Source of the DNA: Phoronis australis
Taxonomy: Eukaryota; Animalia; Phoronida
DNA: 64,000 nt
Direction: 5' to 3'
Assembly (NCBI GenBank): GCA_002633005.1
Contig: NMRA01000117.1
Location: 727,894-791,893 of the forward strand
Shown: one piece after another, positions 1,317 to 22,224 of the stretch
How the letters are laid out: each line of letters starts with the position of its first letter
Position numbering within the stretch: position 1 is the first letter of the stretch
Program-made: the position numbers and the translations under genes
The notes under the pieces: model-generated
The model's input: the letters and a program-made list of their open reading frames with translations, nothing else
Databases searched by the model: none
What the model was told of the DNA's origin: nothing

Positions 1317-4187
1317 AGGTTATGTGCTTAAAAATACAAATGTGTGGTAATGATGGTGATAATTATTTACAAAGCCTACTTTTTGGTGCTCTAGTCCAAG
1401 TCCGCTGCAATCTCTAAAATACGCTGAAAGCCTGAGCGATTCATCTTGGCAAGACTGCTCCAGGCGCCCTGGAGGCAGGAAAACGTAATGCTGCATTACC
1501 CGCGTACATTGAAAACTACCAGGCTAAGTCTAATCATCGGGGAAACCTTATATTCCCAACACCCCACCACCGGAAATCGGGGTTATAGCTGTATAAGCAA
1601 CTTACTAAGAGGCTCTAATTCAGGGGATCGGACGTATTCTAAGTCCGCTCGGCTGCGATATCTGCTAGTGACACTCCCATGAAAATAGAACGGGACGTTC
1701 GTTTCCCTCAGTTGTCCCATGAATTAAATGCATCATATTTAATCTATGGTTGCCTTACGAAGGGATGCTTTTCCGATGAATCCCCTGCAAAAAAGTGAAT
1801 TCGGAACTTCACGAAAGATTCCCTTTTCCAACTACACACAGTTTCGTAAAAACACCGAGAAATGTTTTTGTAACATTACCACGAGTAAAACATGTCTTCT
1901 AAATATTATCTTTAATTTCAAATTGTTTGAGTTGTAAAAGTTAATGTATTAATTTTTAATATATGCCGTCTCTTGTTTAAATGTTTCGCGCGTAATGTGT
2001 TAAAACGTCATGGGTCCAGTCTCTACCGCCGATCAGCGTTGGGTTCACAACCTTATCAACCCCCGATTCATCTACGGCACAACAAATTTCTGGCGTTTCT
2101 GGAACAAATCCCTAAGAAAGAGGGATTTTTTCGAATCCACTCTTCTTTTAACTGATGGGTGAGTATAATGATTTTCTAGTTACACCGGCTCTCCGTCATT
2201 AAAGATGCTGTAGTGTGATCCCGGGGTTTCGATTCCCCGCTACGAACCCTGACCCCACCCCAAGACCAACAAATCCACCAAACCCGCGGTACAGATTCCA
2301 TACCCGCGTATTTGAACTCAACACACGGACCGGGGCAGATGATGAAAAGAAACCACCACCCTCGAGATGTTTTGCACCCTTGAACCTGACATCAAAACAG
2401 TCTCTGTTAATGTAGTTCTGTAGAAATCTGTCTTCGGTTCTCTAGTTGTCATCCTTAAACACCCTTCCACTAATAATATTGAAAGGTCTCGTCCGTTTGA
2501 TGATGATGAGTTTTTGAGATTTCAAAAGACGCTCGGACAGCATAACGACAACATGAGAACACACTCAATAAAACGGATAGTTGTAATAAATCGGGACACA
2601 ACTGCCCACGCCGTTGCTACTGCGGTCCCTCGTCGGTGGATAGAGGGCGACTGGAAGCGAAAATTGGTGTGGCAAACGGGGGTATCTCGAAAGCACCAGC
2701 AACTGACTGCGGGGGGATGATAACTGGTAGACCTATGTGTTGGCGTCACATAGAGTAGGGTGGTGCAAGGAGCTCTAGCTAAGCGAGAGCGGCCATAGTT
2801 TCATTTCATGACTCTTACAGTATACTACCCGGTAATTGAAAAAATGAATTGATTTGCACAAACGAATTAATGCGTTTTACCCCTTGCTTGAGGCGAAACG
2901 CTCAAGGGTAAGGCTTTAGCGTTTTGCCTGCCCGGATCGCAATTACATAACGCCTGATTATTTAGGGGCATTTCATCACTGTTTAGCTGTAAATGCTGAA
3001 TTCAATTGTGTTTTAACTTTGAAAACATTACAACGCTCATCCACTCCATGCGCGCACCCAGCCTTCGATATGGGGGGGCTCGAATTCCCGACGGACTAAA
3101 AAAAAACGGGAGCTCCTCACAGTGAATTGCGACTTTGCGCTTATTTAGTGGACTTTTTCCATTTTCTCGGACTTGTTGTCTCTCGGGGGCTGACCTTTTT
3201 GCCCACTTCGCCCCCCGNNCCCCCCCGGGTGCGCACATGCACTCTGGCGGGGAACACGACAACTCAAGCCACAGACAATGCGTACAGAAATGTGAGACTG
3301 ATTTTATGAGAGCTATATGGCTTAATTCGATTTTAGTTTTTAGCGAGCCAAACAGGGCAAAATACGACTTTAAAACTGCATTTCGCACTATTTAGGTGGC
3401 TAATAACGAAAATCGAACTAGACCTTTTACTCTAAAAGATCGATCTCATCATAATCCTTACCATGATAGTATTCTACTAGACCAAAAATAACCTCGAAAC
3501 CCGCATCAGCAGCAAATCGAGTTGGCTGACACTAAAATTGGGAATTTCGTCAAAAATGGCCCATGGCTCAACCGAATCCTATCACGATAAGGGGTATTAT
3601 GAAACCGGTTTTATGAGCCTCATTCGATTTTCGATTTGAGCCAACTAAATAAACGTACAATGACGAAATTTGTAGCTTTTTGTGGCATTTATGCTATTTT
3701 ATTATTATATACAGGAATGTTGTGTTCAGTTTCTCAGTGGTGTATCGTTGTGAGCATACTGCTGCGCCTCCCCTATCATCACTTTATTAAAGTAATTATC
3801 TTGAATACTTTTTGTTGATTACCTGCGATCTGGCCGCGGCATAACACCGGCGTATCGCCGGTACCCTAAAGCGGAACTAAACGTCGCCCATATTTTTTAA
3901 AGGTTGATAATTCCCACTTGCGAGCAATGTATGTAAGAATTAGTTCACTTAAATTATGTAACATGGTACAAGGGAGTCGCCTCTCACTATTTTTTCTTTT
4001 ATTTTAGAAATTCCACGGGAAACGAAATAACGTTCCGCAGAATGCTAATGTGAGTACCTACTCACAACGGCCACACGGATTTATACGAAACATCATAAGA
4101 AGCATGTATAATTGCTATATAAATAGCTGCTATTCAAACATATTTTCCATATATATGCCAATCCTCTGGCGCCACCCCAGTACTACT

Positions 4188-4310
4188 GTAACCATAGACA
4201 CATACCCTCTCTGTAACTAAGGAGCAGAAGTCGAACTTGAGTTCGAGATTACTGGAGACATAAACCAATGAACTGCGCACTAAGTGTCACGTGGAATCGT
4301 CCTTGACAAC
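4188..4310 (+). promoter_or_regulatory. Cluster of RFX X-box-like motifs upstream of the plus-strand gene
   Basis: GTAACCATAGACAC (4188), GTAACTAAGG (4213), CGTCCTTGACAAC (4298) resemble the X-box GTNRCC-N(0-3)-RGYAAC, 80-200 bp upstream of ATG 4390; all imperfect. Confidence 0.35.
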
Positions 4311-4389
4311 TCAGAAGACATCTTTTCGCGCAGTCACTGCATATTGCATGAAGGATTTTTACTCCAGTTAGTATAGACCTTCAAACGCA

Positions 4390-4479
4390 ATGACGGAACG
4401 GGCGTATCATCAAGAGGCTCAGCGCAAAGCGCAAGTTTTGCAGCGGGCAAAAGAAGCAAAAGATAGAATGGCTAACAAG
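4390..4479 (+). CDS. Unnamed small protein, coding exon 1 (MTERAYHQEAQRKAQVLQRAKEAKDRMANK)
   Basis: ATG in gcaATG context, 30 open codons, donor AAG|GTAATT (phase 0). Confidence 0.7.
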
Positions 4480-5556
4480 GTAATTTTATTCAACTTTTAA
4501 CAATCCCAACTGGCACACCGCCACCGTTCTCATTTGCTCTGCCTCTCTGCTCTGGCATGGCGCGACGAGTCTTTGACTTCACAACTGACAGTAGCAGCAA
4601 AGTGTCATGAACACTCGAGTCCTTTTCACTAAATAGCTAAATGTAATCGCTCATGAAGATTGCCTCAGTCTAGTTGAAGACTCACAACATTCAACAGTAT
4701 GGACTAACCAACGTCACTCACCACTGCATGACTGAGTCTTGACTGACATGCCACTACTAGTCAATCTAGCCTTGCGCCAAGGCTAACATGTCACATGCCA
4801 TTGCATTGTCATCATGGATTCCTCTCTTTTTCTAACTTCTGTTCGTTTGTGTGTGCGTCACTCACCGTCAGTGACAGTGTTCTCAGTACATGAAATTGAC
4901 ATTTCAACTGCATTAGCAATTTGAATGGATTTGAAAAATGTCAAGAAATCTCTTGCCTGATTACCGAAAATAAGACTAATCCCATATTGATCCATATCAA
5001 TGGGGGAGGGGGTGGCCGAGGATCAAGTCTACTGGGTATTGGCCGATTTGGAAGACCAGTTAGTAGTCGCAATAAATTTTCTAGCCTTTTTTAATTTGAT
5101 TATTGATGGGGTGTTTGATTGGGTCAACAACTTCTGTTACCAGGCTATGTGTTGATGATTGGATCTGTAAATCCACATTTGGCAACTATGTATTTTCATG
5201 GTATGATTGACCCGGGTCTTACTAACATTGTTGTGGTGATCACTAGCATTAGCTTTGATTGACTGCTTTGCATTGTTCTTGTGTTAAAATTTGAATGCAA
5301 CGGATATAATTCAAAGCAAACTGTGTGATTGCAACTCAATTTTTATGTTCCTGTTGGCCTAAGTTAAGCAATCACAATGCATCAATGAAACATTTTATGG
5401 ACATTATAACATGGAGTGTGATTTTAAAGTTATCCCCAGGATTTTCTTCCACGTAATGGGTAGGCCAGGTAGTGTAAGAACACATTAAAATCCATGCCAA
5501 CAGCTTCGTGATATAACAGAGCACTGCGAGAAAAGTCTTACAGTTGTTCTTGAGAC

Positions 5557-5946
5557 AAAATAAGAAACCTACTAGAGACAATTACCAACCATTTGATGGT
5601 ATATGGAGGCCAAAATAAGAAACCTACTGGAGACAATCACCATCCATTTGATGCTGGAGACAATTACCAACCATTTGATGGTATATGGAGGACAAAATAA
5701 GAAACCTACTGGAGACAATTACCAACCATTTGATGGTATATGGAGGCCAAAAAAAGAAACCTACTGGAGACAATTACCAACCATTTGATGGTATGTGGAG
5801 GCCAAAATAAGAAACCTACTGGAGACTATTACCATCCATTTGATGCTGGAGACAATTACCAACCATTTGATGGTATATGGAGGCCAAAATAAGAAACCTA
5901 CTGGAGACAATTACTAACCATCTGATGGCATCTGGAGGCCAAAATA
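5557..5946. repeat. Minisatellite, 55-bp unit with interspersed 82-bp variants
   Basis: Unit aaaataagaaacctactggagacaattaccaaccatttgatggtatatggaggcc; about 6 units, two containing an extra 27-bp internal duplication. Confidence 0.9.
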
Positions 5947-6599
5947 GTTGCCTGAGAAGATACCTTAGGATTTTAATCTAACTTAAAAATAAGATACTCA
6001 AGTATGCTCAACAAAATATTTTTTTCAATTGTAGCATCACTATATAGTTGTAATTTAGACTTACACAAGTTTGTAACTGTTGCATGTTGGGAATGCATTT
6101 AATTCTGATTTTAATTTTCACACCTCCGACTGTTGTTGGATAAGCAATCGCCAAAAACCTTGCAGTATCCAAAACGTCTACTTGTGCTAAAAAATAGTGA
6201 CCTTTTCAATGTTTGCAGGTCTTTGTTTCAAGTAAAACCATGTAGTCTACGGTACGTGAACCACCAAATCTTTGTATATTCGAGATGTGTGCACAAGCTG
6301 CAACATTCCTATTCACTGACGGTACCTGCCTTATTATCCCGTTACCCCAAGAAAAGTCTTGAGTCCTCATTAAGACAAAACGACAACATATTATACTTTA
6401 ATGAAGCAGGGCACTGAATTTCCCACTCCGTCAAAAATCAGAAACTAACATCTCCAATGGGATTTGGTAGAGGCTGGAGTTGCAAATCTGTTGTCTGTGA
6501 CCTATGGCAAAGTAAACAAATTATAACGAAACCACTCCATGAAATAGATTGAAACTGTTGCACTGTGTACAACTTATTATTTTTGTTATGAAATTCCAG

Positions 6600-6685
6600 T
6601 ATGCCACCGATTCTTATGAAAGCAGTCACCCACAAGACTACACTGACCGAGTTCCACAAACAAGCTCAAATGCAATGGGAATAAG
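6600..6685 (+). CDS. Unnamed small protein, coding exon 2 (YATDSYESSHPQDYTDRVPQTSSNAMGI-R)
   Basis: Acceptor ttttgttatgaaattccag, open in phase 0 matching exon 1, donor ATAAG|GTAATT ending in phase 2. Confidence 0.65.
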
Positions 6686-7299
6686 GTAATTTGTCTAGAG
6701 CGTGATTATTTCTTTGACCTTTTTATTTCTGTCTTTTCACGTATTTGTTATGAGTTAGGCCAGCTCCACAAAAATATTCTTGTTTAATGATTTTCAAAAT
6801 ATTTGCGTTTTCAAGGGCTGCACTAATGGATGCATGATATGAATGTGATTTTTATTTGCTTTTCAATTCAAGCTGTCAATAGTTAATTGTATGTAATACC
6901 TAGTCATTTACTCTTCAGTTGTGGCACATAATATTTAACTGTTTTGAAAGACCAACTGAGCCTTTGAATCTCCCAACATAATAGAAGTCCACATTCAACC
7001 ATTTGTGATGTCAAAGAATAAGTAACTGGACATTTTGCACAACATTATAGACTGTAATAAATACCAGGTGAAGTCCTTGTATTGTTTTGCTTTTGTAAGA
7101 CCTTAAAGACCATTAAGCAGTTAAGTTTTAACATTAAGGTTTTCTCAATGGTATATTTTTATGGTGTGCAGATGAACTCTAGTTGAAATTTAGAATAATT
7201 CACAAGCTCATCCTACTATACATTATTTCTTCCAAATATCTTGTAAGGTGTTCTATGGTGGCATTAGAACAGTTGTGTATTGACCCAGTTTATGCATGA

Positions 7300-7340
7300 T
7301 AGATTTAGATTTAGATTTAGATTTAGATTTAGATTTAGAT
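7300..7340. repeat. (GATTTA)n hexamer microsatellite
   Basis: About 6-7 direct copies visible. Confidence 0.9.
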
Positions 7341-7372
7341 ACAATGTTTGAGAATCCTTTTTTAATTTTTAG

Positions 7373-7565
7373 ATCCTGCCAAATAATGCCCGTTGAGCAT
7401 GTCCGTCAGTTGAACAAGAGAGATCATAGATTTTATTTCGAAAAAGAGCAATTGAAATCTGTGTGTAGCACATCATCAGACCAAATGTATCGTGTGCTCT
7501 ATCCGGGCTCAATGCTGGGTACAATACAAAGATACGAGTCAGCCCGTGAACCCCATTGGTATTAA
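7373..7565 (+). CDS. Candidate alternative terminal exon A (phase 2; SCQIMP...DQMYRVLYP...HWY*)
   Basis: Acceptor tttttaatttttag, open in phase 2, stop at 7565, AATAAA at 7688. Confidence 0.55.
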
Positions 7566-9563
7566 AAGTAATGAGACTTTAATTTCCTGTCTGTGTAGAT
7601 TAGAAATGCCACCTGCATTGTTTAGTCTAGACCTGTAGTCAAATTTATTGCCTTTTTATTAACCAAATACCAAAATACTAATGAACAAATAAACTGTGGA
7701 AACTTTTTTGATATATTTTTAAGAGAGAAGATTGCATTTTCGGACATTTAATCATTTGAGCAAAACTAGGTATTTCCTTACTATTCTTGAAGTAAAACAG
7801 ATTTTAAGTTATTACAGGTACATTAATCAAACAGCAAAATTATTGAGTGCTCAACAAGTATACCCTTTCAACCTCTCTATGTTATAATAAGCCAGTGCAG
7901 TTTATGGTGTGTCTGATTAAAGGCCCAGAATGCTTAAATCATGAGGCAGGCATTTAGTTGAGCATGGGTGTTTAAAACTACATTTTTGAGTAGTCGGGGT
8001 TGACTGCTTGTTCAAACAGCCGACTGTGTTACAATTCCAAAGGAGCAAATGTTAAAACAGACCTGATGTGCAGGAGTCAAATAAAACAGACAAGGCAGTA
8101 ATTAGTTGAGTGAGTTTTACGCAGTATTTTTATCTGAAATTCGTGCGAGATGAACGTTTGCAAAAACATCACTTTCAAGAAAATCTCAATCATGTTATTT
8201 CAGGGTGGGTGTTATATCAGTTGATCATGGACATTTAAGAAAACGTGCATTAACTGGGAGAGAATGGTATGCAGAAATCTTTTTGGACGTACGCAGCAGT
8301 CTGTCTATGCAGAAATCTTTTTCGGCATTCACAGCAGTCTGTCTATGTAGAAATCTTTTTTGGCGTACACAGCAGTCTGTCTATATTTAGAAGTTATATT
8401 CAGCATTGTGCTTGAGATCCATCAGTTTACACGCCAAAGTCCACATTCAAAACAGTACAAATGTGGAAAGTTATTTCATACTTCATAGCTGAAAATCAAA
8501 CTAAACGCAACTTTGTAGCTGCACTTCTTGTTTGCTGGATTGTTGGTTTATGATTAAATAGATAGTCTGCTTACAACACTCTGTGTATACACAGAAAATG
8601 TCAGGCTCAGGATCAAAAACTGGTACTTTAAATGCGTGAACATAATGATGTTGGCCTTTTAAAGAATATCATAAAAGGGCAGTAAATTTGCTTGGAGTGG
8701 TGTACATACACTGAACTTCTACACTGGATGCTTGCTTGCACTGTTTAGTGTGCTGTACCATGAAAGGTATTCCCTTGTCTGTCACATTGTCAATAGTCAT
8801 ACACTCAGCAGTAACACACACTTGTTTCTTCCTTAGTCACTGTGTGAACAATAGAAAGGGACATAACAGGCAGAAAAGCAATGGTACATTTTGTAGCTTG
8901 CGTCCTCCAACCACAGCTCAGGTCCTGCTTCTGCATTGGACTTAACATCACCTTCGATTAGAGTTGATTTGCTCGGCCACTTGCACTGTGCACTCGTCCA
9001 CATCTAGTCCTTATCCACACTTAGCCTACTGTACCTATGTATGGTTGGTCATCGCACTGTTTTGTTTACTCATGATAGTTTGTGAACCATACACATATTC
9101 TTGCACTTTCATAACAATGTTTAGTTAAGTGTTTAGCTAGTAGTTTGCTTGTGTTTATGCTTCAGTTTAGTATATACATGCGTGTACTTTATGACTGAGA
9201 AGGTGAATTTTACTTTTTAGAATTTTTTGTGTATAAGTTAAATTATCGTGCCTTGAAATGTACTATTCTCATCAAAAACAGGTGATGAAATTCTGAAAAT
9301 ATAGAGCGATGTGCATAGTTATTTACTAGAAAATGAAAAAAGTCAACTGTACTGATTATTTTTGTACAAAGGCGAGAAAGTTTTAATTACATTTTGCATT
9401 CAATCTTTCATGTGTCTGCTACTCATAGGTAATGTTGAAAGTTACAGGCTTTTGAAAATTTGAGGAAGCTTTATTTTGTATTCAGTCTATAAGTTTATCG
9501 CACTGAACTTCTGCCCTTCTCTGTTCAAATACCTCTCTTCACTCTTTACTGTTTCTCACATAG

Positions 9564-9822
9564 GACTGCCAATGGCTGTTTGGAACAATTTCGCCTACAT
9601 AGTGACGGATTCGAAAATCGTTACCGACAGGGAACTAAGAACTATCCCCATACTGATCAAGTTTACACAGTCATGTACCCTGAAAAAGATAACAGTCAAT
9701 ACACAGCTGATTTCAACAAAACAAATAGATGTCGCCTAGTAGAGGAACAGCGTTACGATATTTTGAAGAAAATGAATGGAAGCTTTCATCTGAAAGTGTT
9801 ACAAGAAACACACAAAATATGA
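9564..9822 (+). CDS. Candidate alternative terminal exon B (phase 2; TANGCLEQ...DQVYTVMYP...HKI*)
   Basis: Long pyrimidine tract ctctttactgtttctcacatag, 85 open codons in phase 2, TGA-TAG double stop. Confidence 0.6.
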
Positions 9823-9961
9823 TAGTGTGGAAAGTGACCTCATGTTTTGCTATGAGTGATATTTAGTTGTTTTGAATTAAAATTTTTTGGAGTGTTGGTT
9901 TCTGCACGTTTTGTTGGGTTTTTGGTATATTGGAAGACCAATCATTGGCCTTTATTTGCAG

Positions 9962-10160
9962 ATTGAATGATGACATCACTAAAACGGTTGAAAATAAAGA
10001 AAAGGCACCAGTCAAGAAAGCTGTGGTGGAACAAAAGCCTCCTTGGTTTCCATCCATCAATATTGTAAAGTTAGAGAGAGACAATGTATATTCTATCATG
10101 CATCCATTAGATTTTAGCGTTTATGATGCACGCAAAAAGATGGCTGCCCAATCTAAATAG
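9962..10160 (+). CDS. Candidate alternative terminal exon C (phase 2; LNDDITK...DNVYSIMHP...QSK*)
   Basis: Acceptor cctttatttgcag, open in phase 2 to TAG; AATAAA at 10908. Confidence 0.6.
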
Positions 10161-10967
10161 ACCGCATAGGCTTTGTCGTTTAGGCCAAGTTGGCAAGTTG
10201 TGGATATAAGGTTCCATTCTGCGGTAAAACTCTGAGGAGATAATTCCTGTCTGGACAGCACAACTTGGCACTGATGCATTCAATCGATGCCTGAACAGTC
10301 TTTTGCGAATTTGCTCAGGTGTATTTATAACAGGATTTCAATGTTTGTTAAGATCAGTTGATGTATATACCCTAGAAACATTTGTGGCTCACATGGTGGT
10401 CTTCTCATTCATCTCATCTTGTGTTTTTGTGGTTATGGCACAACCGGTTTCTCTTTGGCAAATCATGAGGTCACTTCAATGCTTGCTCATCTAGAGTTCA
10501 TTTTGCTCAAATTTAAGTTTTGCTCAAGTATATATGTATGCTCTGTAATCTTAATGTGTTCCCTGTTGGTATAATTGTCGTTTCATAGTGTGTATATCTC
10601 TTACAAAGCTTCTATGAAGTTTTTCCAAAGCCATCGCTGGTACTATTTCTAGTTACTAGTAAGTTTGCTCAAGTCTGTCACAATTTTTTTCTGCCGTTCA
10701 TGTTGAAATAGGTAATTATCATTGAGATACTGTTACTGGATAATTGTTAGATGATATGTGACAAATGTTCAATGTTCTACCAGATAGATGTGAAAATGAA
10801 AAAGTCCCACTGCAGAAGTTACTGTATATGATAACTTTTACATATCATATAATACATAATTGTTGTCAGGGATTAACGAGTAAATGTTCATGTATTTTCC
10901 ATACATAAATAAAATTGTTTATTGCTCATGATTCAGTTCTTCTTACTAACACTTTCCTTCTCTGTAG

Positions 10968-11145
10968 GCCAAACTATGAGTATGAAATCAGTAGGAAGAT
11001 CCAGGAACAAGTGTACGCACATACGCGACATCGCCACATTGATAATACACCTGAGGATAAAGTGTGGCCATTAATGTACCATGATACTGGAAATAAGCAC
11101 AGTGCCCGGTCGCAGAGAAACAAGATTCCACATTATAAAGTCTAG
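10968..11145 (+). CDS. Candidate alternative terminal exon D (phase 2; PNYEYEIS...DKVWPLMYH...YKV*)
   Basis: Consensus branch point TACTAAC (10944-10950) + actttccttctctgtag acceptor; open in phase 2 to TAG. Confidence 0.65.
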
Positions 11146-11410
11146 ATGGTTTCACTCTCTCCTCAAACGAAATGTTTAGGTGCAGCAGCTGATAAGTGTT
11201 GAACAGAAACTTTCAAGCAAAATATTCTTATGTGCAACAACTGAAAAGTGAAATATAAACCACTTTCTCATCATGCATAACCATTGGTTGCCTGGGTCAT
11301 TGTTATTAACATACGATTTTTTGATTTTGGACACCAAAAATCGCCTGGTCATTGTACCAGCTCCTGTGTGAAAGGCCAACCCGAAAACTCCGAGAGGATA
11401 CTCTGGGGGT

Positions 11411-11535
11411 TAGGACTGGTCTGTGTAGGACTGGTCTGTGTAGGACTGGTCTGTATAGGACTGGTCTGTGTAGGACTGGTCTGTGTAGGACTGGTCTGTG
11501 TAGGACTGGTCTGTGTAGGACTGGTCTGTGTAGGA
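11411..11535. repeat. 15-bp tandem repeat (taggactggtctgtg) x~8
   Basis: Near-perfect direct copies. Confidence 0.95.
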
Positions 11536-12211
11536 ATGTTTCTAGTCTACTGTGTATAACTGCTTGACTTACCACCTGAGTGCTGGGCCATGTTAAACCC
11601 AACACAACCACCCGTGTTCAAAATTCAGCTACAATTCAATTTTTTGAACAAGAAAATTTTATCTGAAATTTTGATTTTTAATAGTTTCAGTGTCCCAAAT
11701 CAAAGAAAATACTCCTTTTTATCAAATGTTTACTGTGACAGTGTTGTGAAACTAATTGCCTTGGGCTTAGCTTCATATATTTATTTTAAAACGAAACGTT
11801 TAAATGAATGAAAGTCAGTTTTGTTCACGAGAAAATATTTACTGCAACTGTCTTTGAAATCGACCGTGGTAATCGCTGTATGTGTGGCTGACCACAAGAG
11901 ACCCGGCTCTGCTGGCTGGCACCAGGAATTCAGTAAAATGAACATTCCTTCTGCAAAAGGATTAAACAGGTCGAATACATCTCGATTTTCTAAACAATTG
12001 AAGAGGTAAAATATTCTTAATAGCAAAAACTGCCTTCTGTGCCTCTTTAAAAACCATCATTAAAAATACAACTGCTATCTTTGAAGCAGTTATAATAACA
12101 GTTATGATGACAATTATGATGACAGTTATAATGCTCTGACTTGGAACTTATGATGTATTTTAAATTGATATTTTTCCAACTGTTTGTCTCATTTGTCATT
12201 TTCATTACTAG

Positions 12212-12407
12212 TCACTCCATACAACGTTCTTCTTACAACCACAGCCGAAACGGCCCTGTAAGGGATCAGACCTGGAGAGCTATGCTTAAACAGATACGCC
12301 AAGAGGAAAAAGTTTTGCGCGATCACAACATTGTAATGGGGCCTTTGACTTCATTTATCGATTCAGATTTGTTTCAAACTGTTAACATTCCTGCTAACAG
12401 GTTTTAA
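12212..12407 (+). CDS. Candidate alternative terminal exon E (phase 2; HSIQRSS...DQTWRAMLKQ...NRF*)
   Basis: Acceptor tttgtcattttcattactag, open in phase 2 to TAA; AT-rich 3' UTR-like stretch with AATAAA at 13026. Confidence 0.55.
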
Positions 12408-15400
12408 ACGTAAACGCCTGTTAAGACTATTCATTCAGAGGTGATAATTATTGATAAGGGCCTTAACCCGAATGGGTACGATACATTTATTATGAAATGT
12501 GATGCCAAGTGTTTCTTCAAATTTTCGCTTCCGTTGTGTTATTGTCGTGTCGAAATATGCATTTTCCGATCTATTTTTATACGTTTTAATACAACTCCAA
12601 CAAAGTAATCTTCACTAGCCATATTATAGAGCCTTATCGATCTACATGTAGAAATCTTTTCTTTTTCAAAGGATCATGTAATTTTAACTACCATTTGTGT
12701 TTTTATATTTTATGTGGCCATGAAGGATGTTAGTTTTGAAATTGTACATGGCAACTCTGAGTAAACTTCACTACCTTTATCGGCCTTAGTAGATTTACAA
12801 ACCGGTATTAATTTTTTTTCAAAGTATCTTCTTTCAAACATGTTAACATGTGTTCTTATATTTTATGTGTTCGTGGACGTGCTGCTAATTTTGTTATTGC
12901 ATGGCTTTCATAACGCCGATCTTCCTAATTTTCTGAGTTAGTGTAACGTGTATACATGTCTTCTGATACTTGCTCAATGCTCAAAACAGATGTGTTGTCC
13001 AAACTATATTGTTTTGTAAATGTTAAATAAAATTGTTATAACGGAATTGTTGCTTTTCATCTAAGTGTCGCTAGCGTCAAGAAGCCGCACTGAAAAAGCT
13101 AGTTAGTACAAATTTGAAAGTACACATCCAGAAATCATATCATGGTTTCGCACCGTTATTAGTGGAATAGATAGGCTACATGGCAATAAATGATAAATAC
13201 ATAACCCATTAGTATGGGCAAAACAACGATCGGTAAAACCCACAAGAGTACAGGAATGTACACATGACAATTAGTGACATGAGGAAGACATTACCAAGAA
13301 GGGCCGGCCACTGAGGTGGCAAATCACCAATTTTGACTGATTTCCAGAATTGCAAAATTACCGCTTAACTGAGAAACTAATGTTTTATTCCATTAGGAAA
13401 AACGGGTGTTTTTCAACAAAACGAGTTCTTAATTCTATGACATACATTAATGGCGGTGCAACTGTGGTTTGAAAATGTTGATTCCACCGCACGCCGTTCC
13501 CACACCTAGGTATAACCGGTTGATGTATAAATAGCGCTGATGTCAAATACAGTATCGTGCATAGACATGGTCTCCTGCATTAGTGACGAGAGGAGCCGGG
13601 GGGCTCCGGGACCCGTGCGAGTCGAGATGCGCGCCGGCGGAGAATTTTTCTAAGGGTTTCGGCTTCAGTTGGACAAAGATAAGCCTCCAGATTCAGAACT
13701 AGAAGTCACATGAATTCTTCTCATTTGTAACGCTAATCAAGTTTCTTGCTAGCAACAATGATACATACATCGAGACAAAATTATTCCATTGATAAATGAC
13801 TTCTACATCTCACATTCCGTCATTTGTGCTCAAATTTCAAAAGTCTACGATGAATTTTTTGGCATAATTGATTAAAAATTAGGCGCATTTAGGATGACTG
13901 ATTTACAAGGATTATAATCAATCATTATTTCCACAACAGTCGGTGTAACTCTTGGCAGTGTTGGGGAGACGGAATGTGGAGTGGAAGACCCGTTTTCAGA
14001 ACAGCCATTTTCCAGCTCTGGAAAAATATATTGATAGCGATTTTAATCAATGCCGTACCAACGAAGGAATAGGTACATGTTCAGTTTAAAAATGATTTCA
14101 TACTATTCACATAATAATAATAAGATTCTGCAAGGGATTAAGGTGGTACAGCAGCGGAGGATGGACGCTGGACCAACCACACTAAGACAGAGAAGACGGC
14201 AATATGCAAAACATGTCCATGTCGGCGCATAAAAAGGGACGTGTGAACGCGAGACAAACGAGGAAAAATAGGTAGATCGAGGTAAAATGAAGACCAACAA
14301 AGGCAAAACAAAAATCCATGTACTTCGCGTCTAAAAACGTAAGAGGAGTGTACCACGTAATAATGTACTCAAGATAGTATTCGGCTCAGTTTGGGCACAT
14401 ACATACATTTAGTTTACTACGAACAGCACTGCTACATTTCACTAATTTTGCAAGGTTTTAGCCCGCTGTGATACAGCTGCGTAAACTAGACTACTGGCAG
14501 AGAAGATGGCAATATGCACCCACACATGTTGCGGTCTATGTGCATGAAAAGATAAAGAACAACTATTGTAATTCTAATAGCATATTTATTGAACAGGATT
14601 AAGATTCCACCTGACAAATTTTTATCTTCTAGTCAGTCTATCACATCTGTTCAGGGAGCGTTAACATTGAAAAACAGCTTGGATGAAAATTACAAAATAT
14701 GAAAGTGAAATTTCTGAATGATTTAGATGTGGCCTGAACCACAAAGGGAATTACCGTTTTTTTTCAATTTTTTGTTTCCAGATGTTGTATAAGGTATGAA
14801 CATGTCACATGGAAATGTGTACACTTTTTGCAACTCCAGTGAAGTGGTCTTTTTAAAAGACATAAAATGTTTTACACAGCATGTTAAGCAAAGGACCCTC
14901 TTTCACAGTAACAACAAGTAATTTTAACTACACCCATGTAAACTAGGATTCATCCAGGCCTACCAATATAGTCAAATTACGAGTGATTCAGCCGGACACA
15001 CCAAACAAAACTAGGTTGCCAGAAGATGAGGGGAACACAATTCACTGCCTGTGGACGTCTATAAAGGTTTAATAGGCGATAGGCCTGTAATGGGTATGCT
15101 CAACCAACTTGCCTTTTGATTGACAGAATGAAGCATACTAAACAATATGTATGGTAACAATTACCCATGAATGATTTAGACTGGACATGAAAACAGTGCC
15201 AAAATTGCAATTATCTCCTTTTCATTTGTCTTAAATACGCAAATTATGGGTCATCCAACCAAAAAAGTCAATACGAGGCCAAGTAAATTACACTGGTAAT
15301 AGGATTGAATCTAACTTAACTGCAATAGTAAAGGACCAAAGAACATCTCAAAAAGGCAACATTCATTGGCAATAAGGCTGAACTTGGTTTTCAGTAAATT

Positions 15401-16266
15401 TTCACTCAAACTTTAGTTCAGGCTCTGGAGCTATCTACCGGTTGGTAAAATGCAAGCAATGGCTATGGGACTAGTATTACAAAGCTAGGTAGATAATCAC
15501 CTGGGAACACAACAGTGATCTTTCAAGGAAAATGATTGAGTAGCAATCCTGGGTCTTCCTGCTTTTTCGCCAACAGAGGATTCCATCACTTTCCACAGAA
15601 AGGGACACTTGTGTTGAGGTTCTATGAAGTATGTCCGGCTGAGTCATTAATAACTTGACTATATGGGTGATTTTAACTATCAACACATTTTCATATTTTA
15701 TGCAGTCATAATAATGTCAGTTTTGAAATTGCGTGTATGACTTTCAATGTCCTGATATTCCTTCTGTATGTTCTAAGACACGAGTGTAGTTTTTTGTCTC
15801 CTGGTACTTGCTCAAAGCTCATAAGAGATACATTGCCTATAGTTTTGTGGACATTGAAACAAAACTTATTTTGGCTTACATCACAGACACCACCATTCCC
15901 GACAAGTAGCCACTGACAAAGTAATGAAAAGCTTATTACACATTAATTAAACTGTTCATCAACAAATTACAAGGACCACATCCAGGCATTTGTTCTTAGT
16001 TATTAAACCAAATCATAGTTTACTAAACATGCGAATAATAATAAAAATATAACCCTTTCAGTATAGAGAGAACAACAATGAATGAAACTCACAAGACTAC
16101 AAGAATGTACAAACGTGAATTTCTAATATACATATTATACAGCCTGTAGCTATGGAAACTTGTTTGACACACAGAAAATTCCACATTAATTAAAATTCTG
16201 GCTCTAAACAGAAGCAGGTTTTATAAACATAGCTAGATACAGCTACTTAACAGTATGACATTAAAT

Positions 16267-19200
16267 TTAGTTTGGTGGTGGAGGTGGAGGCCTTGATCCC
16301 AGTATATTAACAATGACATCAAACTGGGATGGTGGCGGTGGAGGCGGAGCTACACCGAAGCTTGATGGTGGTGGAGGAGGTGGAGCCACAGGATTGGGCG
16401 GAGGGGGGGCATGGTGTTGTTGCCATGGTGGCAGGCTGCTTGGTGGCGGAGGCGGAGCTATCTGCCAAGGAGGCGGAATACTGCTTGGCAGGGACGTTGG
16501 TGGTGGCTCTGAAAAAAAAAGAGTGCAGGTGGTAAATAATAACACCTAAGCAATAACAGAATACAAACTCAATAATACAGCTTTTATGAAGTGTCTAAGA
16601 ACACTACACTTGCATTGAAGTGAAAACAACCCTTGGAATATATTGCCAGACTGTAATAACAAAACCTGGCAAATGTGTGTTTGTGTGCGCGTGCATGCGT
16701 GTGTATTCAGAATTACCCGTCTTTAAAGGCGAAGGCAACCTTTTTCCATGTCATTTTGAGCTAAAATAAGGTTGGTTGGTTATCCTAGACATATTTTCCA
16801 CTTAATTACAGCTTTTCATAATTTTATTAATTACTTGTCCGCTACTGCGGAAGTGACGTTTTAGGAGGCAAGCATTTCGCGCCAATTTCTTTTCATATAG
16901 TCTGACTGTGAGAGCTGCTGAGTCAGTCATTGTTCTACCTCGGTTGTGTTAAGTTCCGTCGTCGTTTGCTTTCATTTACTAGTCAGTCAATATGCCACAC
17001 TGTTGCTGCGTACCGGAATGTACTAATTATCGGCTCACGCGCGCTTTGGGAGTACCTTTGCATCGCTTTCCGATGGATGACACACTTCGCCGTACTTGGC
17101 TCGCTCGTGTGAAGAACGCAGCGTTACCCGTCCACGCAACGTACAAAGCAGTGGAGAATTACCGTGTGTGTGGCAAGCACTTTCTGCCGTCCGATTACGA
17201 AAGGGATTTGTACGCTGAACTGATGAAGGTCCCCGCGAAACAACGCTTGAAGAAGGATGCCATTCCGTCTGTGTTGATTCCCGGCAGTGCCCCGTCGCCA
17301 CCCCCGAGAAGTGCGTTTTTGAAGCGAGAAGCCTCGCGAGCTGTGGCCAGTACAGTGACTGGAGCCAGTGGAGGCACTTCATCTACTGTCACCCGTGCCT
17401 CCGAACGTACCCCAGAGCGTGCAATTCCTGGAACCAGTAGTGATTCGCCCTGTGCTGTTTTCTCCAGCCCAGAGCCTCTAAGCAGCCCTGCAGCGATATT
17501 GAGTAGTGGGAGTGATTACAGGCCCAGTTCGACACCCAGTGAAGAGGACAGTTCGTCGTCCAGTGAACAGATCGGTGAGCCAAACTTTGATAAGTTTATT
17601 GTGGACTTGTCTAAAGTGTTGGAGCTATTTAGAAGGTGCCAGGTGTGTGGCGAGGGAGTCACACGACACGATGTAAGCAGTTTGGGTGCTCAGGTCACCA
17701 TCCAGTGGGAGTGTGTCGCGGGACACTCTGGCAAGTGGGACAGTTGTTCCTCTGTCCGTGGTATGCCGGAGGTCCACTTAACCATGTCCAGTAGTGGCTT
17801 GGCCTCGTCGAACTCTGAACAGCACAAGCATTCCATTGAGGTAGGCATAACAACGCACACAGTGCATTTGCACCAAGATGTGTCACTACGTCTGTCCTCA
17901 GTAGCTGCCTCGTTTCTCTCAACAGCTGCCTGTGCCTGTGCGTACTCTGCCTCGTTATACTCGGGCTCAAACATGTACCCACCCACTGAATGTCCGTGAA
18001 AAAATTCCTCGTCACCACTGCTGTGAACAAGGTCTCCGTCACTCACACTACTGTCACTGTGATACGGGTCACCGACTCCAGCCATTTTCAGCTTACAACA
18101 CACTAAACAATCCCTAAATCCAACGTAGTTGAGTTCTCTACTAACCTATCTTGCCGCAGAATACTCGCCGATGGAAAGTGGTGGCGACAATTGTTGAAAA
18201 ACAGCACAAAACAAAAGTAGAATAGAACAGATTCGCACGGTAAAGTCAACGCAAAACCAAGTGGCGGGAAACGCTTGCCTCCTAAAACGTCACTTCCGGA
18301 GTAGCGGACGAGTAATTAATAAAATTACGAAAAGCTGTAATTAAGTGGAAAATATGTCTAGGATAACCAACCCACCTTATTTTGGCTCAAAATGACATGG
18401 AAAAAGGTTGCCTTCGCCTTTAAACATTTGTTAGTTGCAGAGAACACCTTAATCAACAAAGGCATTTACTGTAACACTTCAGCAACATTTGACAAATAAA
18501 CCAATCACTTACGTTGCCATGGAAACTGCTGTGACGACTGAGACGAGGGAGGTGGAGGAGGTGGTGCTGACAACAGTGATCGGGGTGGAACACCTGAAAT
18601 GAAACAATTTTCAGTTGGCAACAAAACAATGCGACAATAACGTGACTACTATATCTTAGAATCACTGGGACCCAAACTGCCATACTTCAAAGCTATCACT
18701 TCTTACAGCAACTTAAATTGGCTGTAAACCTGCCACTACTTCATAATTTAGACCACTGTAATTGGTTTCAAATTGTTCCTCAGCCAATTTCAACATAATT
18801 TCAGGGTTTTGAAAGAACTGACAGTTTGTTAATATTGCTCGAGACTAGGCTCTACATGGTGACTAGTCACAGCGTGTCATTTCATGCACAGAGCAAAGTC
18901 TACAGAACTGACAGTTTGTTAATATTGCTCGAGACACGGCTCTACAAGTTGACTAGTCAGTGTGTCATTTCATGCACAAAGCACTGTCTCCAGAATTGAC
19001 AGTTTGTTAATATTGCTAGAGACACGGCTCTACAAGTTGACTAGTCACAGTGTGTCATTTCACGCACAAAGCACTGTCTCCAGAATTGACAGTTTGTTAA
19101 TATTGCTCGAGACTAAGCTCTACAAGATTACTAGTCATAGTGTGTCATTTCATGCACAAAGCACTGTCTCCAGGAAAAAAAGAACCAAGAGCATTTTGAA

Positions 19201-21051
19201 AACCCAGATATCACTTCCTACCCGCCTCAGTAAAGAACAAGTTGAGACTAATTTTATATCTGTAAGTGTTATGATTCAAAAGTTCGTTACCTATACAGAA
19301 CGTGGGTTTATAGAAGAGCTGAGATTAATTCATGCCTAAAAACTTAGATTTTGATTTTTCTAGGATCCAAACCGTTTTAAATGCAAGTAGACAAAATTAA
19401 ATATGATCTAAACGCAATTAACTGCATTAAATGTAATAAAAACAGACAGACTAAATTCAACATCATCTATACAGTCAGACAACAAACTGTGAACACTAGT
19501 TACCACGTCTCCACAAAACCCTATGCACACGTGCACATTGCATAACTTAATACGATTACAGCTGCCTACAAGCTACATCGCCATCGGTTCACTTGTTCAG
19601 ACAATTACCAGCAATGTGTGAGGAAAATGTCCCAGCCTTTAAGTGGGTAATTATAGTTTTGTGCCAAAAAACATTGTAACTTACCCATACTACCTGAAGA
19701 CTGAGATGTGTTGGGTGGTCCAGAATTGGTTTGCCAAGGAGGCATAACAGGAGGTGGCAACGATGTGGGAGGGATTAGAGGCGGGGGCTGTGATGTGGTG
19801 GGAGGAGTAAAGGATGATGACGTGTTCAATGACAGCAAAGAAGGCGGAGTCTGTTGAGGTGGTGGCTGGTCCCAAAGACTTCTTGGGGGAGGCTGGAACA
19901 AAACAAGATATAATTTGGCTGTCATTAAATGTTTTCAGATGCTCCTTATCCTAATCATCACTCCTTTGAGATGGGTAGACCAGTCATATTTTATTTTTGT
20001 TGCATTTTGACTTGGGCCTTACCAGTTGCATTATACTATACAAGTAACAAACAACCAATCTTCACTAGTTACACTCCAATACAAAAATGGCATCACAATA
20101 CAGGCACTTCCTGTAACAGAATCAATAGTAAACAAGAGCAACACGTACACCACAACAGACGACTATTGTTCCAAACATTCCCACTGTAAGCAATGCAAGT
20201 ACACTTAAAATAGCCTGTAAGAGGTGCAAAGTGAACCAGTGATGCTCTCCTCAATAGGAAAACACATGTCACCTCTAATCATTGCCAAAAAGAACATTCT
20301 GTTTCAATATACATCGGAACTCACCAGCGGTGTTGCGTTTGCTTGGGTGAGAGGAGGGGGATGACCACGTCCGAAAGCAGGTGGTGGCTGATCATTGAAC
20401 CGTGACTGTCTGAATGGGAGCCTATTTTGTGATGGGGGATTACTGAATCCACTTGACGTCTTGGTTGGAGGTGGAGGGCCTTCACCAAGTTCAGCCATCA
20501 ACGACATGTACTGAAAGAAAGACAAATCATCTATGGAACCAAATACATGACACACAGAAGCCATGAATACAGGCACTTGTCCTTCAGTGATATCTTTCTC
20601 AAAAAACTACTGGTCTTGGACAATGGGACAATAACATGAAAATAGTTGACCCTGGCTGGTGATTCCCGTCTCTAGTAAATCAAGCAAGAGTTAAGCTAGG
20701 AAATAGGCATACAAATTGAAATATGCAGACTGGCTTTGTAATCTGTTGTAACTTATAGTGATCAGAAACTGAAAACAGAAGTTAAAAAAATTTACACAGT
20801 ATATAGGTAGCCATTACGAGGATCGCTAAAGCCTGAGATCGCAACCACCAAACTATTTCCCAGACTCAACTAGAAAACCGACCAATCGCATAACACATTT
20901 TGACAGAATTTCCAACTTCAAGTGATGGGATTGGACAATTTTCGAGTTGAACTTAAGAAAAGTTTGGTGGACGTGAGCCCAGAGGAAAACTGGGCGAGTG
21001 CTGCTTCTCACTTCACTATCCATCTTGGCCTTGTCAACTGTTGAGGCAGGC
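16267..21051 (-). CDS. SF1: Second copy of SF1 3' exons (partial exon 8 and exons 9-12)
   Basis: Exons 21051-21012 (partial), 20510-20325, 19892-19685, 18593-18513, 16508-16267; near-identical translation and intact splice sites relative to the copy at 25048-28180; truncated at N 21052. Confidence 0.75.
16992..17999 (+). CDS. THAP-domain protein: N-terminal part of Kolobok transposase, lacking the DDE core
   Basis: C2CH THAP signature CCVPECTN...LHRFP...W...RVCGKHF...LKKDAIPSV, Ser-rich linker, CxxC...C..GH..W zinc-finger-like segment, then reads into the antisense of the second ORF. Confidence 0.8.
   Translation: MPHCCCVPECTNYRLTRALGVPLHRFPMDDTLRRTWLARVKNAALPVHATYKAVENYRVCGKHFLPSDYERDLYAELMKVPAKQRLKKDAIPSVLIPGSAPSPPPRSAFLKREASRAVASTVTGASGGTSSTVTRASERTPERAIPGTSSDSPCAVFSSPEPLSSPAAILSSGSDYRPSSTPSEEDSSSSSEQIGEPNFDKFIVDLSKVLELFRRCQVCGEGVTRHDVSSLGAQVTIQWECVAGHSGKWDSCSSVRGMPEVHLTMSSSGLASSNSEQHKHSIEVGITTHTVHLHQDVSLRLSSVAASFLSTAACACAYSASLYSGSNMYPPTECP
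17690..18085 (-). CDS. KolX-like / P2X7 ballast-domain-like Cys-rich protein, C-terminally truncated
   Basis: GYMFEPEY...SWCKCTVCVVMPTSMECLCCSE matches the recalled YxFEP...WCxCxxC..M....ECxCCxE motif of Kolobok KolX and P2X7-like intracellular domains; convergent to the THAP ORF. Confidence 0.75.
   Translation of the reverse strand: MAGVGDPYHSDSSVSDGDLVHSSGDEEFFHGHSVGGYMFEPEYNEAEYAQAQAAVERNEAATEDRRSDTSWCKCTVCVVMPTSMECLCCSEFDEAKPLLDMVKWTSGIPRTEEQLSHLPECPATHSHWMVT
18818..19173. repeat. ~65-bp minisatellite (5 copies here, 2 copies at ~25957-26134)
   Basis: Unit actgacagtttgttaatattgctcgagac...gtgtcatttcatgcaca repeated; copy number differs between duplicated blocks. Confidence 0.85.
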
Positions 21052-21052
21052 N

Positions 21053-22224
21053 TATCGGCTCACGCGCGCTTTGGGAGTACCTTTGCATCGCTTTCCGATG
21101 GATGACACACTTCGCCGTACTTGGCTCGCTCGTGTGAAGAACGCAGCGTTACCCGCAGCAGTGGAGAATTACCGTGTGTGTGGCAAGCACTTTCTGCCCT
21201 CCAGTTACAAAAGGGATTTGTATGCTGAACTGATGAAGGTCCCAGCGAAACAACGCCTGAAGAAGGATGCCATTCCGTCTGTGTTGATTCCCGGCAGTGC
21301 CCCGTCGCCACCCCCGAGAAGTGCGTTTTTGAAGTGAGAAGCCTCACTCGCGAGCTGTGGCCAGTACAGTGACTGGAGCCAGTGGAGGCACTTCATCTAC
21401 TGTCACTCGGGCCTCCGAACGTACCCCCAGAGCGTGCAATTCCTGGAACTCGTAGTGATTCGCCCTGTGCTGTTTTCTCCAGCCCAGAGCCTTTAAGCAG
21501 CCCTGCAGTGATATTGAGTAATGGGAGTGATTACAGGCCCAGTTCGACACCCACTGAAGAGGACAGTTTGTCGTTCAGTGAACAGATCGGTGAGCCAAAC
21601 TTTGATAAGTTTATTGTGGACTTGTCTATTTAGAACTGAGGTGCCAGGTGTGTGGCGAAGGAGTCACACGACACGACATAAGCAGTTTGGGTGCTCACGT
21701 CACCATCCAGTGGGAGTGTGTCGCGGGACACTCTGGCAAGTGGGACAGTTGTTCCTCTGTCCGTGGTATGCCGGAGGTCCACTTAACCATGTCCAGTAGT
21801 GGCTTGGCCTCGTCGAACTCTGAACAGCACAAGCATTCCATTGAGGTAGGCATAATAACACACACAGTGCATTTGCACCAAGATGTGTCACCACGTCTGT
21901 CCTCAGTAGCCGCCTCGCTTCTCTCAACAGCTGCCTGTGCCTGTGCGTACTCTGCCTCGTTATACTCGGGCTCAAACACGTACCCACCCACTGAATGTCC
22001 GTGAAAAAATTCCTCGTCACCACTGCTGTGAACAAGGTCTCCGTTACTCACACTACTGTCACTGTGATACGGGTCACCGACTCCAACCATTTTCAGCTTA
22101 CAACACACTGAACAATCCCTAAATCCAACGTAGTTGAGTTCTCTATTAACCTATCTTGCCGCAGAATACTCGCCGATGGAAAGTGGTGGCAACAATTGTT
22201 GAAAAACAGCACAAAACAAAAGTA
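21053..22224 (+). mobile_element. Second, degenerate internal fragment of the same Kolobok derivative, bounded by Ns
   Basis: Colinear with ~17027-18219; 15-bp deletion in THAP, premature TGA at 21335-21337, frameshifts; no TIRs; same THAP/KolX junction. Confidence 0.85.

Follow-up and report, generated by a model that had tools for sequence, protein, structure and literature searches.

One donor and five alternative last exons in a small, likely ciliary gene of the phoronid Phoronis australis

Can one small gene keep a constant beginning and choose among several ends, and if so, how old is the choice and what might it serve? The question is raised by the gene at 4390–13031 of a 64,000-nucleotide stretch of the Phoronis australis genome (GCA_002633005.1, contig NMRA01000117.1, positions 727,894 to 791,893, forward strand; hereafter the window, numbered from its first letter). 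An earlier note made from the sequence alone had described a constant N-terminus of two exons followed by homologous, mutually exclusive last exons sharing a D-x-x-[YW]-x-x-[ML] motif. Its coordinates hold. On the plus strand, as are all features of the gene given below, the constant part comprises the coding sequence of exon 1 (4390–4479, phase 0) and exon 2 (6600–6685, phase 2), 58 codons and two nucleotides together, and phase-2 frames open at 7373, 9564, 9962, 10968 and 12212 with 64, 86, 66, 59 and 65 codons (split codon counted), each running to its own stop at 7565, 9822, 10160, 11145 and 12407, respectively. AATAAA is read in the sequence at 7688, 10908 and 13026. Acceptor-like AGs are commoner than such frames, 36 of them lying in 6750–14000, of which seven open at least 45 codons.

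Five last exons joined to a single donor

The RNA data comprised three raw stranded runs, all from one study whose species label is the same, along with an older set of contigs, and joins entered the listing at three or more reads per run. Transcripts start at 4312–4319, and exon 1 (4319–4479, placed by read 5′ ends and joins, with a phase-0 donor) is joined to exon 2 by 171, 146 and 12 reads in the three runs. From the exon 2 donor at 6685, reads lead directly to five acceptors, at 8837 (11, 8 and 0 reads), 9564 (40, 20 and 7), 9962 (23, 29 and 2), 10968 (48, 24 and 7) and 12212 (53, 37 and 18), amounting to 19, 67, 54, 79 and 108 of 327 join reads; the join to 9962 is also present in the older contig set. 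The corresponding last exons, 8837–8945, 9564–9822, 9962–10160, 10968–11145 and 12212–12407, complete isoforms of 94, 144, 124, 117 and 123 amino acids, whose shares vary modestly between runs (chi-square p=0.022; run X2 vs run X3, p=0.096). Since there is a single donor and a stop in each exon, the last exons are mutually exclusive, and one donor is spliced to one of five alternative last exons behind a constant N-terminus, as the earlier note had proposed.

The set of exons in use differs in part from the one proposed. Four of the five named acceptors (9564, 9962, 10968 and 12212) have RNA joins, and 7373 has none listed; among the further candidates, 8837 is spliced, though it is a minor exon lacking the motif and any homologue found, and 8204 and 10184 have no joins. 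For 7373, 8204 and 10184 alike, joins from 6685 numbered fewer than three reads in each of the three runs. The frame at 8204 was dropped as an exon, since it overlaps a 38-nt tandem repeat and has neither join nor homologue. The 7373–7565 exon is intact, with the motif, a predicted 122-aa isoform and the AATAAA at 7688, and we infer either splicing in some tissue not sampled here or recent silencing. A TTAGAT microsatellite (7294–7347) fills the branch-point zone of its acceptor, adding AGs.

One could suppose that the exons are spliced in series into one long repeat protein, or that a single exon is ever used. P0012, an unnamed JGI record in which one frame contains both a motif piece and a piece of the 12212 type, would fit the former, as would a 9043→9564 join (4 reads), the sole join between last exons. 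That join, however, lies 3′ of the 8837 stop, so the coding tails remain unjoined, and five direct joins from 6685 with a stop in every frame exclude both cases for this species, though the animal that P0012 comes from may have another layout; as a general account we regard this one as having almost no chance.

A separate polyadenylation site for each exon, which the note had also expected, was not confirmed; read depth suggests two shared 3′ ends. Depth collapses 3′ of the distal signal at 13026–13031 (from 31 to 2 across it) and dips at 10908, to which the 3′ UTR of exon 9962 runs, and in X2 and X3 it is unbroken, in short reads, over 9564–10900 and 10968–13000. In X2, depth is 104 at 10259–10485 versus 23 join reads for 9962, and 47 at 10968 for 48 join reads, followed by 18–25 across 11167–12074. 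In this run depth exceeds or outlasts the join reads, suggesting that 9564 transcripts extend as far as the 10908 site and some of the 10968 transcripts as far as 13026. Contrary to shared 3′ ends, run X4, at low depth, drops past 9800 from 11.9 to 1.9, close to an ATTAAA at 9876.

Several smaller observations concern the same transcripts. Intron 1 contains a rare cassette exon of 33 nt (6219–6251; joins in 1 and 4 reads, five in all), whose in-frame stop likely induces decay. Intron 2 (6686–9560) has a depth of 3–9 vs 0–2 in intron 1, suggesting slow splicing, and a form left unspliced there would end one codon past exon 2, at 59 aa. Loose read ends behind 6685 matched no further window exon and were taken as mixed consensus. 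At least four coding variants occur among the rows listed, three of four being synonymous. A short repeated element upstream of the gene (3047–3212) attracts reads from other loci on both strands.

Relatives and the origin of the tails

A HMMER search with exon 12212 gave five matches, including isoform X2 of LOC141903963 from the nemertean Tubulanus polymorphus, and a subsequent profile search gave ten proteins; the structures of relatives were read from their protein isoforms, not from DNA. Tubulanus isoforms X1, X2 and X3 have 58 residues in common, then R, then different tails, which resemble exon 9564 (X1, 38/78 identical, z 36), 12212 (X2, z 21) and 10968 (X3, z 8.7), and their lengths of 141, 122 and 116 residues compare with 144, 123 and 117 in the window. 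In the chiton Liolophura (LOC135461536), isoforms X1 and X2 have 57 residues in common and then part with R vs S, the outcome expected of an AG junction in phase 2; both tails carry the motif. An H-F-K-V terminus in Tubulanus X3 and Liolophura X2 recalls the C-terminal H-Y-K-V of exon 10968. Records from Haliotis (LOC124118971, X4) and Ruditapes (LOC132752756, X2) have 12212-type tails, and exon 9962 finds its best match in the N-terminal part of P0012 (z 7.7), whose second piece stands behind a different front in P0008, also an unnamed JGI record. Exon 7373 has no clear one-to-one relative among the homologues found.

The two constant exons behave differently. Exon 1 matches 7/7 homologues (z 7.5–11.2), and the residues of its helical head, YHxEAxRxxR..R.KEA, are invariant in 9/9 full-length homologues. 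Exon 2 appears to be a linker, with its length and phase-2 donor kept and no sequence conservation in 7/7 homologues (z at most 2.0). Judged from these isoforms, the exon-array design is ancient, with one-to-one tails in the nemertean and a tail switch in the chiton. Nemerteans and molluscs split over 500 million years before the present, and individual tails appear to have been kept since.

Other searches added little. P0007, a 1106-aa repeat protein, was dropped as a spurious match, and P0022 proved to be an unspliced exon 1. Neither exon 9564 nor exon 2 found a match in word-index searches, an insensitive method, and the atlas returned unnamed clusters only (scores 0.91–0.94; 228, 175 and 60 members, commonest in Mollusca, Mollusca and Rotifera, respectively).

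The earlier note had taken all the last exons as ancient duplicates, which stands for four of them. Each of the five named tails holds one in-frame D..[YW]..[ML], and 6686–13100 contains two other matches, one per strand. The best ungapped 9-residue block scored 214 in the five peptides vs 98±11 in shuffled ones (0/150), and 118 vs 68±8 (0/150) when the four motif exons with RNA joins were taken by themselves. Among relatives, the motif is found in all five proximal-type tails (Tubulanus X1 and X3, Liolophura X1 and X2, and P0012; 0–1/200 shuffles), whereas it is at chance in seven of eight 12212-type sequences, the eighth (4/200 shuffles) having it at a different place. Exon 12212 itself fits the motif (1/200 shuffles), but the fit is unconserved in its relatives. 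Since the motif is kept in the proximal type and not in the 12212 type, the duplicated family consists of the four exons 7373, 9564, 9962 and 10968, which share D-x-(V/M/I)-(Y/W)-x-x-(M/L)-(Y/H)-P, also kept in other animals. Homology between these alternative exons rests on about ten residues and does not extend to 12212 or 8837. The distal exon, marked by YxHSRxGP ... LRxxNxVMG, is probably a separate, ancestral tail type. Exon 2 was tried as a decayed copy of the motif and rejected (47/200 shuffles, no BLASTP alignment).

No significant DNA similarity exists between tails (best z 2.4, 21 pairs), so any duplication must be old. The same lack, together with protein similarity near chance beyond 9–10 residues, would fit four unrelated exons that were recruited separately and converged on a short binding motif. 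Against convergence, the four have the same phase, similar lengths and a single motif each, and the distance from the motif to a terminal P-H-aromatic is 25 residues in both 7373 and 10968 (26 and 26 in relatives). We therefore consider the motif exons very probably ancient tandem duplicates and convergence improbable.

A scan for the head motif found seven metagenome loci, all with a GT donor 27–33 codons past the start (phase-0 candidates, some weak); in L001, the contig ends after a short exon 2 that has a phase-2 donor. A metagenome scan with the 12212 type found no locus, and window reading frames outside exon 1 had no match to the seven. L003 and L007 hold genes without an array; their end motif resembles that of 12212, and they have no DxxYxxM exon. 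In L003 (6000–10730), three head-bearing genes stand within 2 kb, starting near 7214 on the minus strand and near 8004 and 9096 on the plus strand, each with its own predicted tail and none with the DxxYxxM motif, as far as sequence models tell. The L003 and L007 models point to the 12212 tail as the old one and to gene duplication as another possible source of head-plus-tail variety, which makes the L003 cluster a natural comparison of gene with exon duplication. In L007, 3′ of the head gene (9000–10100), cysteine-rich frames were seen that we take to resemble cystine-knot hormone genes.

Choice among the last exons

How is one of five acceptors selected? Six long-range RNA helices are predicted whose 5′ arms lie within intron 2, in 6818–7287 (6823–6847, 6830–6865, 6875–6902, 6907–6931, 7159–7187 and approximately 7260–7284). 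A perfect 17-nt inverted match links 6823–6839 to 10094–10110, inside exon 9962, and was reached in 1/300 shuffles. In a second, post hoc scan, for which two minisatellites were masked and penalties stiffened within a home-made energy model, the six best helices from 6690–7290 occupy all five intervals between acceptors, so that each would expose one used exon. Every interval has a helix of −25.9 or better; the weakest of the five was reached by 0/524 shuffles and 2/268 real controls and the energy sum by 0/524 and 3/268, and helix strength follows exon use (rho 0.9, 10/524). Such a model would also account for the skipping of the nearest exon, 7373. Speaking against it, the first energy scan, unmasked, was not significant (26/490, top four; controls equally strong), and the antisense strand pairs nearly as well. 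Because the antisense strand pairs similarly and the energies come from a home-made model, we rate the steering of exon choice by RNA helices at somewhat below an even chance.

We lean slightly towards choice that involves no RNA structure and depends on splice-site strength, the two polyadenylation sites and splicing factors, with the inverted matches being chance or repeat relics. The insignificant first scan and the antisense result agree with this, as do the 2–4 of 268 real controls that pass each measure, and Pan et al. report 3′ clusters lacking pairing. On the other hand, a common 3′ end seems likely for 9564 and 9962, judging by the X2 depth of 104 vs 23 joins, in which case a good upstream acceptor must be skipped; the rarity of the 17-nt match and the presence of one helix per interval also count against it.

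Candidate function and comparison with known systems

Pfam gave nothing meaningful for nine window peptides or for 5 + 13 homologue pieces. With a full-length profile (A4), the PDB yielded chain 8SNB_1o at E=3.4e-6, the next match being at 0.7. Entry 8SNB is a sea-urchin sperm doublet microtubule, according to PMC12551952. The match, obtained with full-length profiles, spans about 25 head residues corresponding to the exon-1 helix, and the last residues of the chain have 8/18 identities with exon 12212 by eye. AlphaFold predicts a confident helix at about residues 3–30 and low confidence for the rest (mean pLDDT 50); one helix with a low-confidence remainder is also what many microtubule inner proteins show. 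Chain 1o itself (142 aa) is labelled 'Meiosis-specific nuclear structural protein 1' (MNS1), which may be an automatic misnomer. For the ELLEn module or MNS1, no other PDB chain fell below E 0.7 and Pfam gave no match, no dedicated pattern search having been run.

The promoter offers a second line of evidence. The X-box consensus is GTHNYY AT RRNAAC in bioRxiv 2020.08.21.260547, and we used it with the spacer relaxed to 0–3 within 300 nt of the start. Sites of this kind occur in 5/8 promoters vs 33/359 background tiles (P ~0.002 for 4/7, two similar loci merged; 0.013 without the window). The one in the window, at 4296–4310 just 5′ of the transcription start, has counterparts in 4/7 related loci and is a putative regulatory element. 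The ciliary role that the earlier note had put forward is supported by the 8SNB_1o match of the exon-1 head together with the promoter enrichment.

We accordingly regard a role of the gene products at doublet microtubules as probable, and several points count against it. The 8SNB_1o match is limited to some 25 head residues, with a different coiled stretch in the middle and a tail that scores just 0.2 bits against the 12212 profile, so that chain 1o may be a paralogue; the window's exon 1 alone had no PDB match, nor had the motif-exon profile; and the exact AT spacer is found in none of the X-box-like sites, a stricter pattern being absent from the window. PDB searches with exon 2, exon 12212, P0012 and L003 exon 2 likewise gave no useful match. 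The same splicing could therefore serve a product that is no structural part of the doublet but belongs to the basal body, the membrane or the cytoplasm, or is not ciliary at all, sharing only a short helix. The brevity of the match and the tails without PDB matches would suit such a product, and charged helices can match through composition. Yet the head residues are invariant in 9/9 homologues, 8SNB_1o stands five orders above the next match and the X-box-like enrichment is independent of the PDB, and we consider a product outside the doublet unlikely.

The note had further linked the gene to C20orf85 and C2orf50, which was not borne out: exon 2 (VPQTSSNAMG) is unconserved and off the SNYG consensus, and the homologues have no Pfam family. 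A SNYG-module protein of this type, with the SNYG-associated helix duplicated into the last exons, would nevertheless find some footing in the S-S-N-A-M-G at the end of exon 2, a relaxed fit, and in a chiton linker ending T-D-T-Y-G, and the published module has a helix C-terminal to the motif. With the patterns taken from PMC10973386, exon 2 departs from the strict SNYG consensus [ST]-N-x-x-[ILVY]-G, its relaxed form is absent from 10/10 homologues, and no Pfam or PDB match points that way, which together with the unconserved exon 2 leaves this account very improbable. The Mn unit [TS]-[TS]-x4-[YF] matches only in exon 2, 7373 and P0012, and the shared tail motif does not fit it.

Taken together, the locus is a one-donor, five-tail gene that probably makes small filament-like proteins of the ciliary or sperm doublet, with a common anchoring helix and differing tails. 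The motif exons would have arisen by old tandem duplications placed before the older distal exon 12212, and expression in ciliated cells would be driven by RFX. The helix of exon 1 may dock on the doublet as the sea-urchin chain does, and each tail would bind a separate site or partner through its short motif; the products are likely doublet-binding helices with interchangeable short-motif tails. In exon choice, 3′ splice sites would mostly compete with one another, there being two main 3′ ends (past 10908 and past 13026), and long-range RNA helices possibly loop out upstream exons. Two further points weaken this account, namely that exon 7373 is without listed joins and that all raw reads come from one study. 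A bolder version, in which one gene supplies a whole set of doublet proteins with a shared anchoring helix and position-specific tails, a ladder of RNA helices sets the isoform ratios and an array over 500 million years old does the work of another lineage's gene cluster, is speculative, and we hold it to be rather unlikely.

Elsewhere in the window, 39560–49320 and beyond contains exons coding for the largest subunit of an RNA polymerase (Pfam matches RNA_pol_Rpb1_1 and _2), presumably of the Pol III type to judge by sequence resemblance. Duplicated blocks with inverted matches of 44 and 40 nt and transposon-like frames fill 14000–27500, and two of these frames tried against Pfam had no match.

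Variable exons are known in several designs, among them mod(mdg4), protocadherin and UGT1. The array had been likened to a mirror image of the protocadherin arrangement; that design is present here and is not new, being known from lola, pipe and PGRP-LC. Our search of the literature for the LOC identifiers of four relatives or for the head motif found none, subscription literature being mostly outside the search, and among the 20 matches listed out of 421 for 'microtubule inner protein' with splicing terms none joined the two. The splicing design is a known one; the family in which it occurs appears undescribed and is likely ciliary, with neither a Pfam entry nor a paper that we found. The gene offers a candidate identity for the doubtfully labelled sea-urchin doublet chain, which has the head motif in common, with no DxxYxxM seen in the aligned parts and no significant tail match, and several predicted sequences for unassigned densities in spiralian cilia.

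Among ciliary proteins, the SNYG proteins (C20orf85/CIMIP1, C2orf50, PIERCE1/2, CFAP90, CFAP144, SPMIP1 and TEX49) and the Mn-unit proteins are also small, mostly unstructured and likely doublet-binding, and an aromatic-x3-aromatic spacing recalls the Mn unit. Those proteins are separate genes, however, as microtubule inner proteins are known as many small separate genes, whereas at this locus splicing of one gene appears to be what diversifies them. In humans, the C-terminal class makes up 77/236 tandem duplicated exon substitutions, which are ancient and enriched at termini (PMC9741552). The present case differs in that the variable part exceeds half of the protein, four duplicates stand with a non-homologous tail, and the family is an uncharacterised invertebrate one.

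Tandem 3′ cassettes also occur in Drosophila PGRP-LC, CG42235 and pipe, where an intronic docking region pairs with downstream selectors (PMC6191721). In those genes a single docking site pairs with selectors in introns, the pairings are conserved, and compensatory mutations have proven them, whereas at our locus pairing is predicted only, with several arms on the 5′ side and two of the selectors within coding sequence. Closest in layout is Drosophila lola, which likewise has a constant N-terminus and about 20 alternative last exons (PMC10551640). In lola the tails consist of zinc fingers, and their 3′ UTRs are separate, unlike the 36–86-residue peptides with a 9-residue motif and seemingly shared 3′ ends found here, in a gene family unrelated to lola and likely ciliary. 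With less than 9 kb, the Phoronis locus is a convenient test bed for the choice of one donor among five acceptors, a question that is open even for lola.

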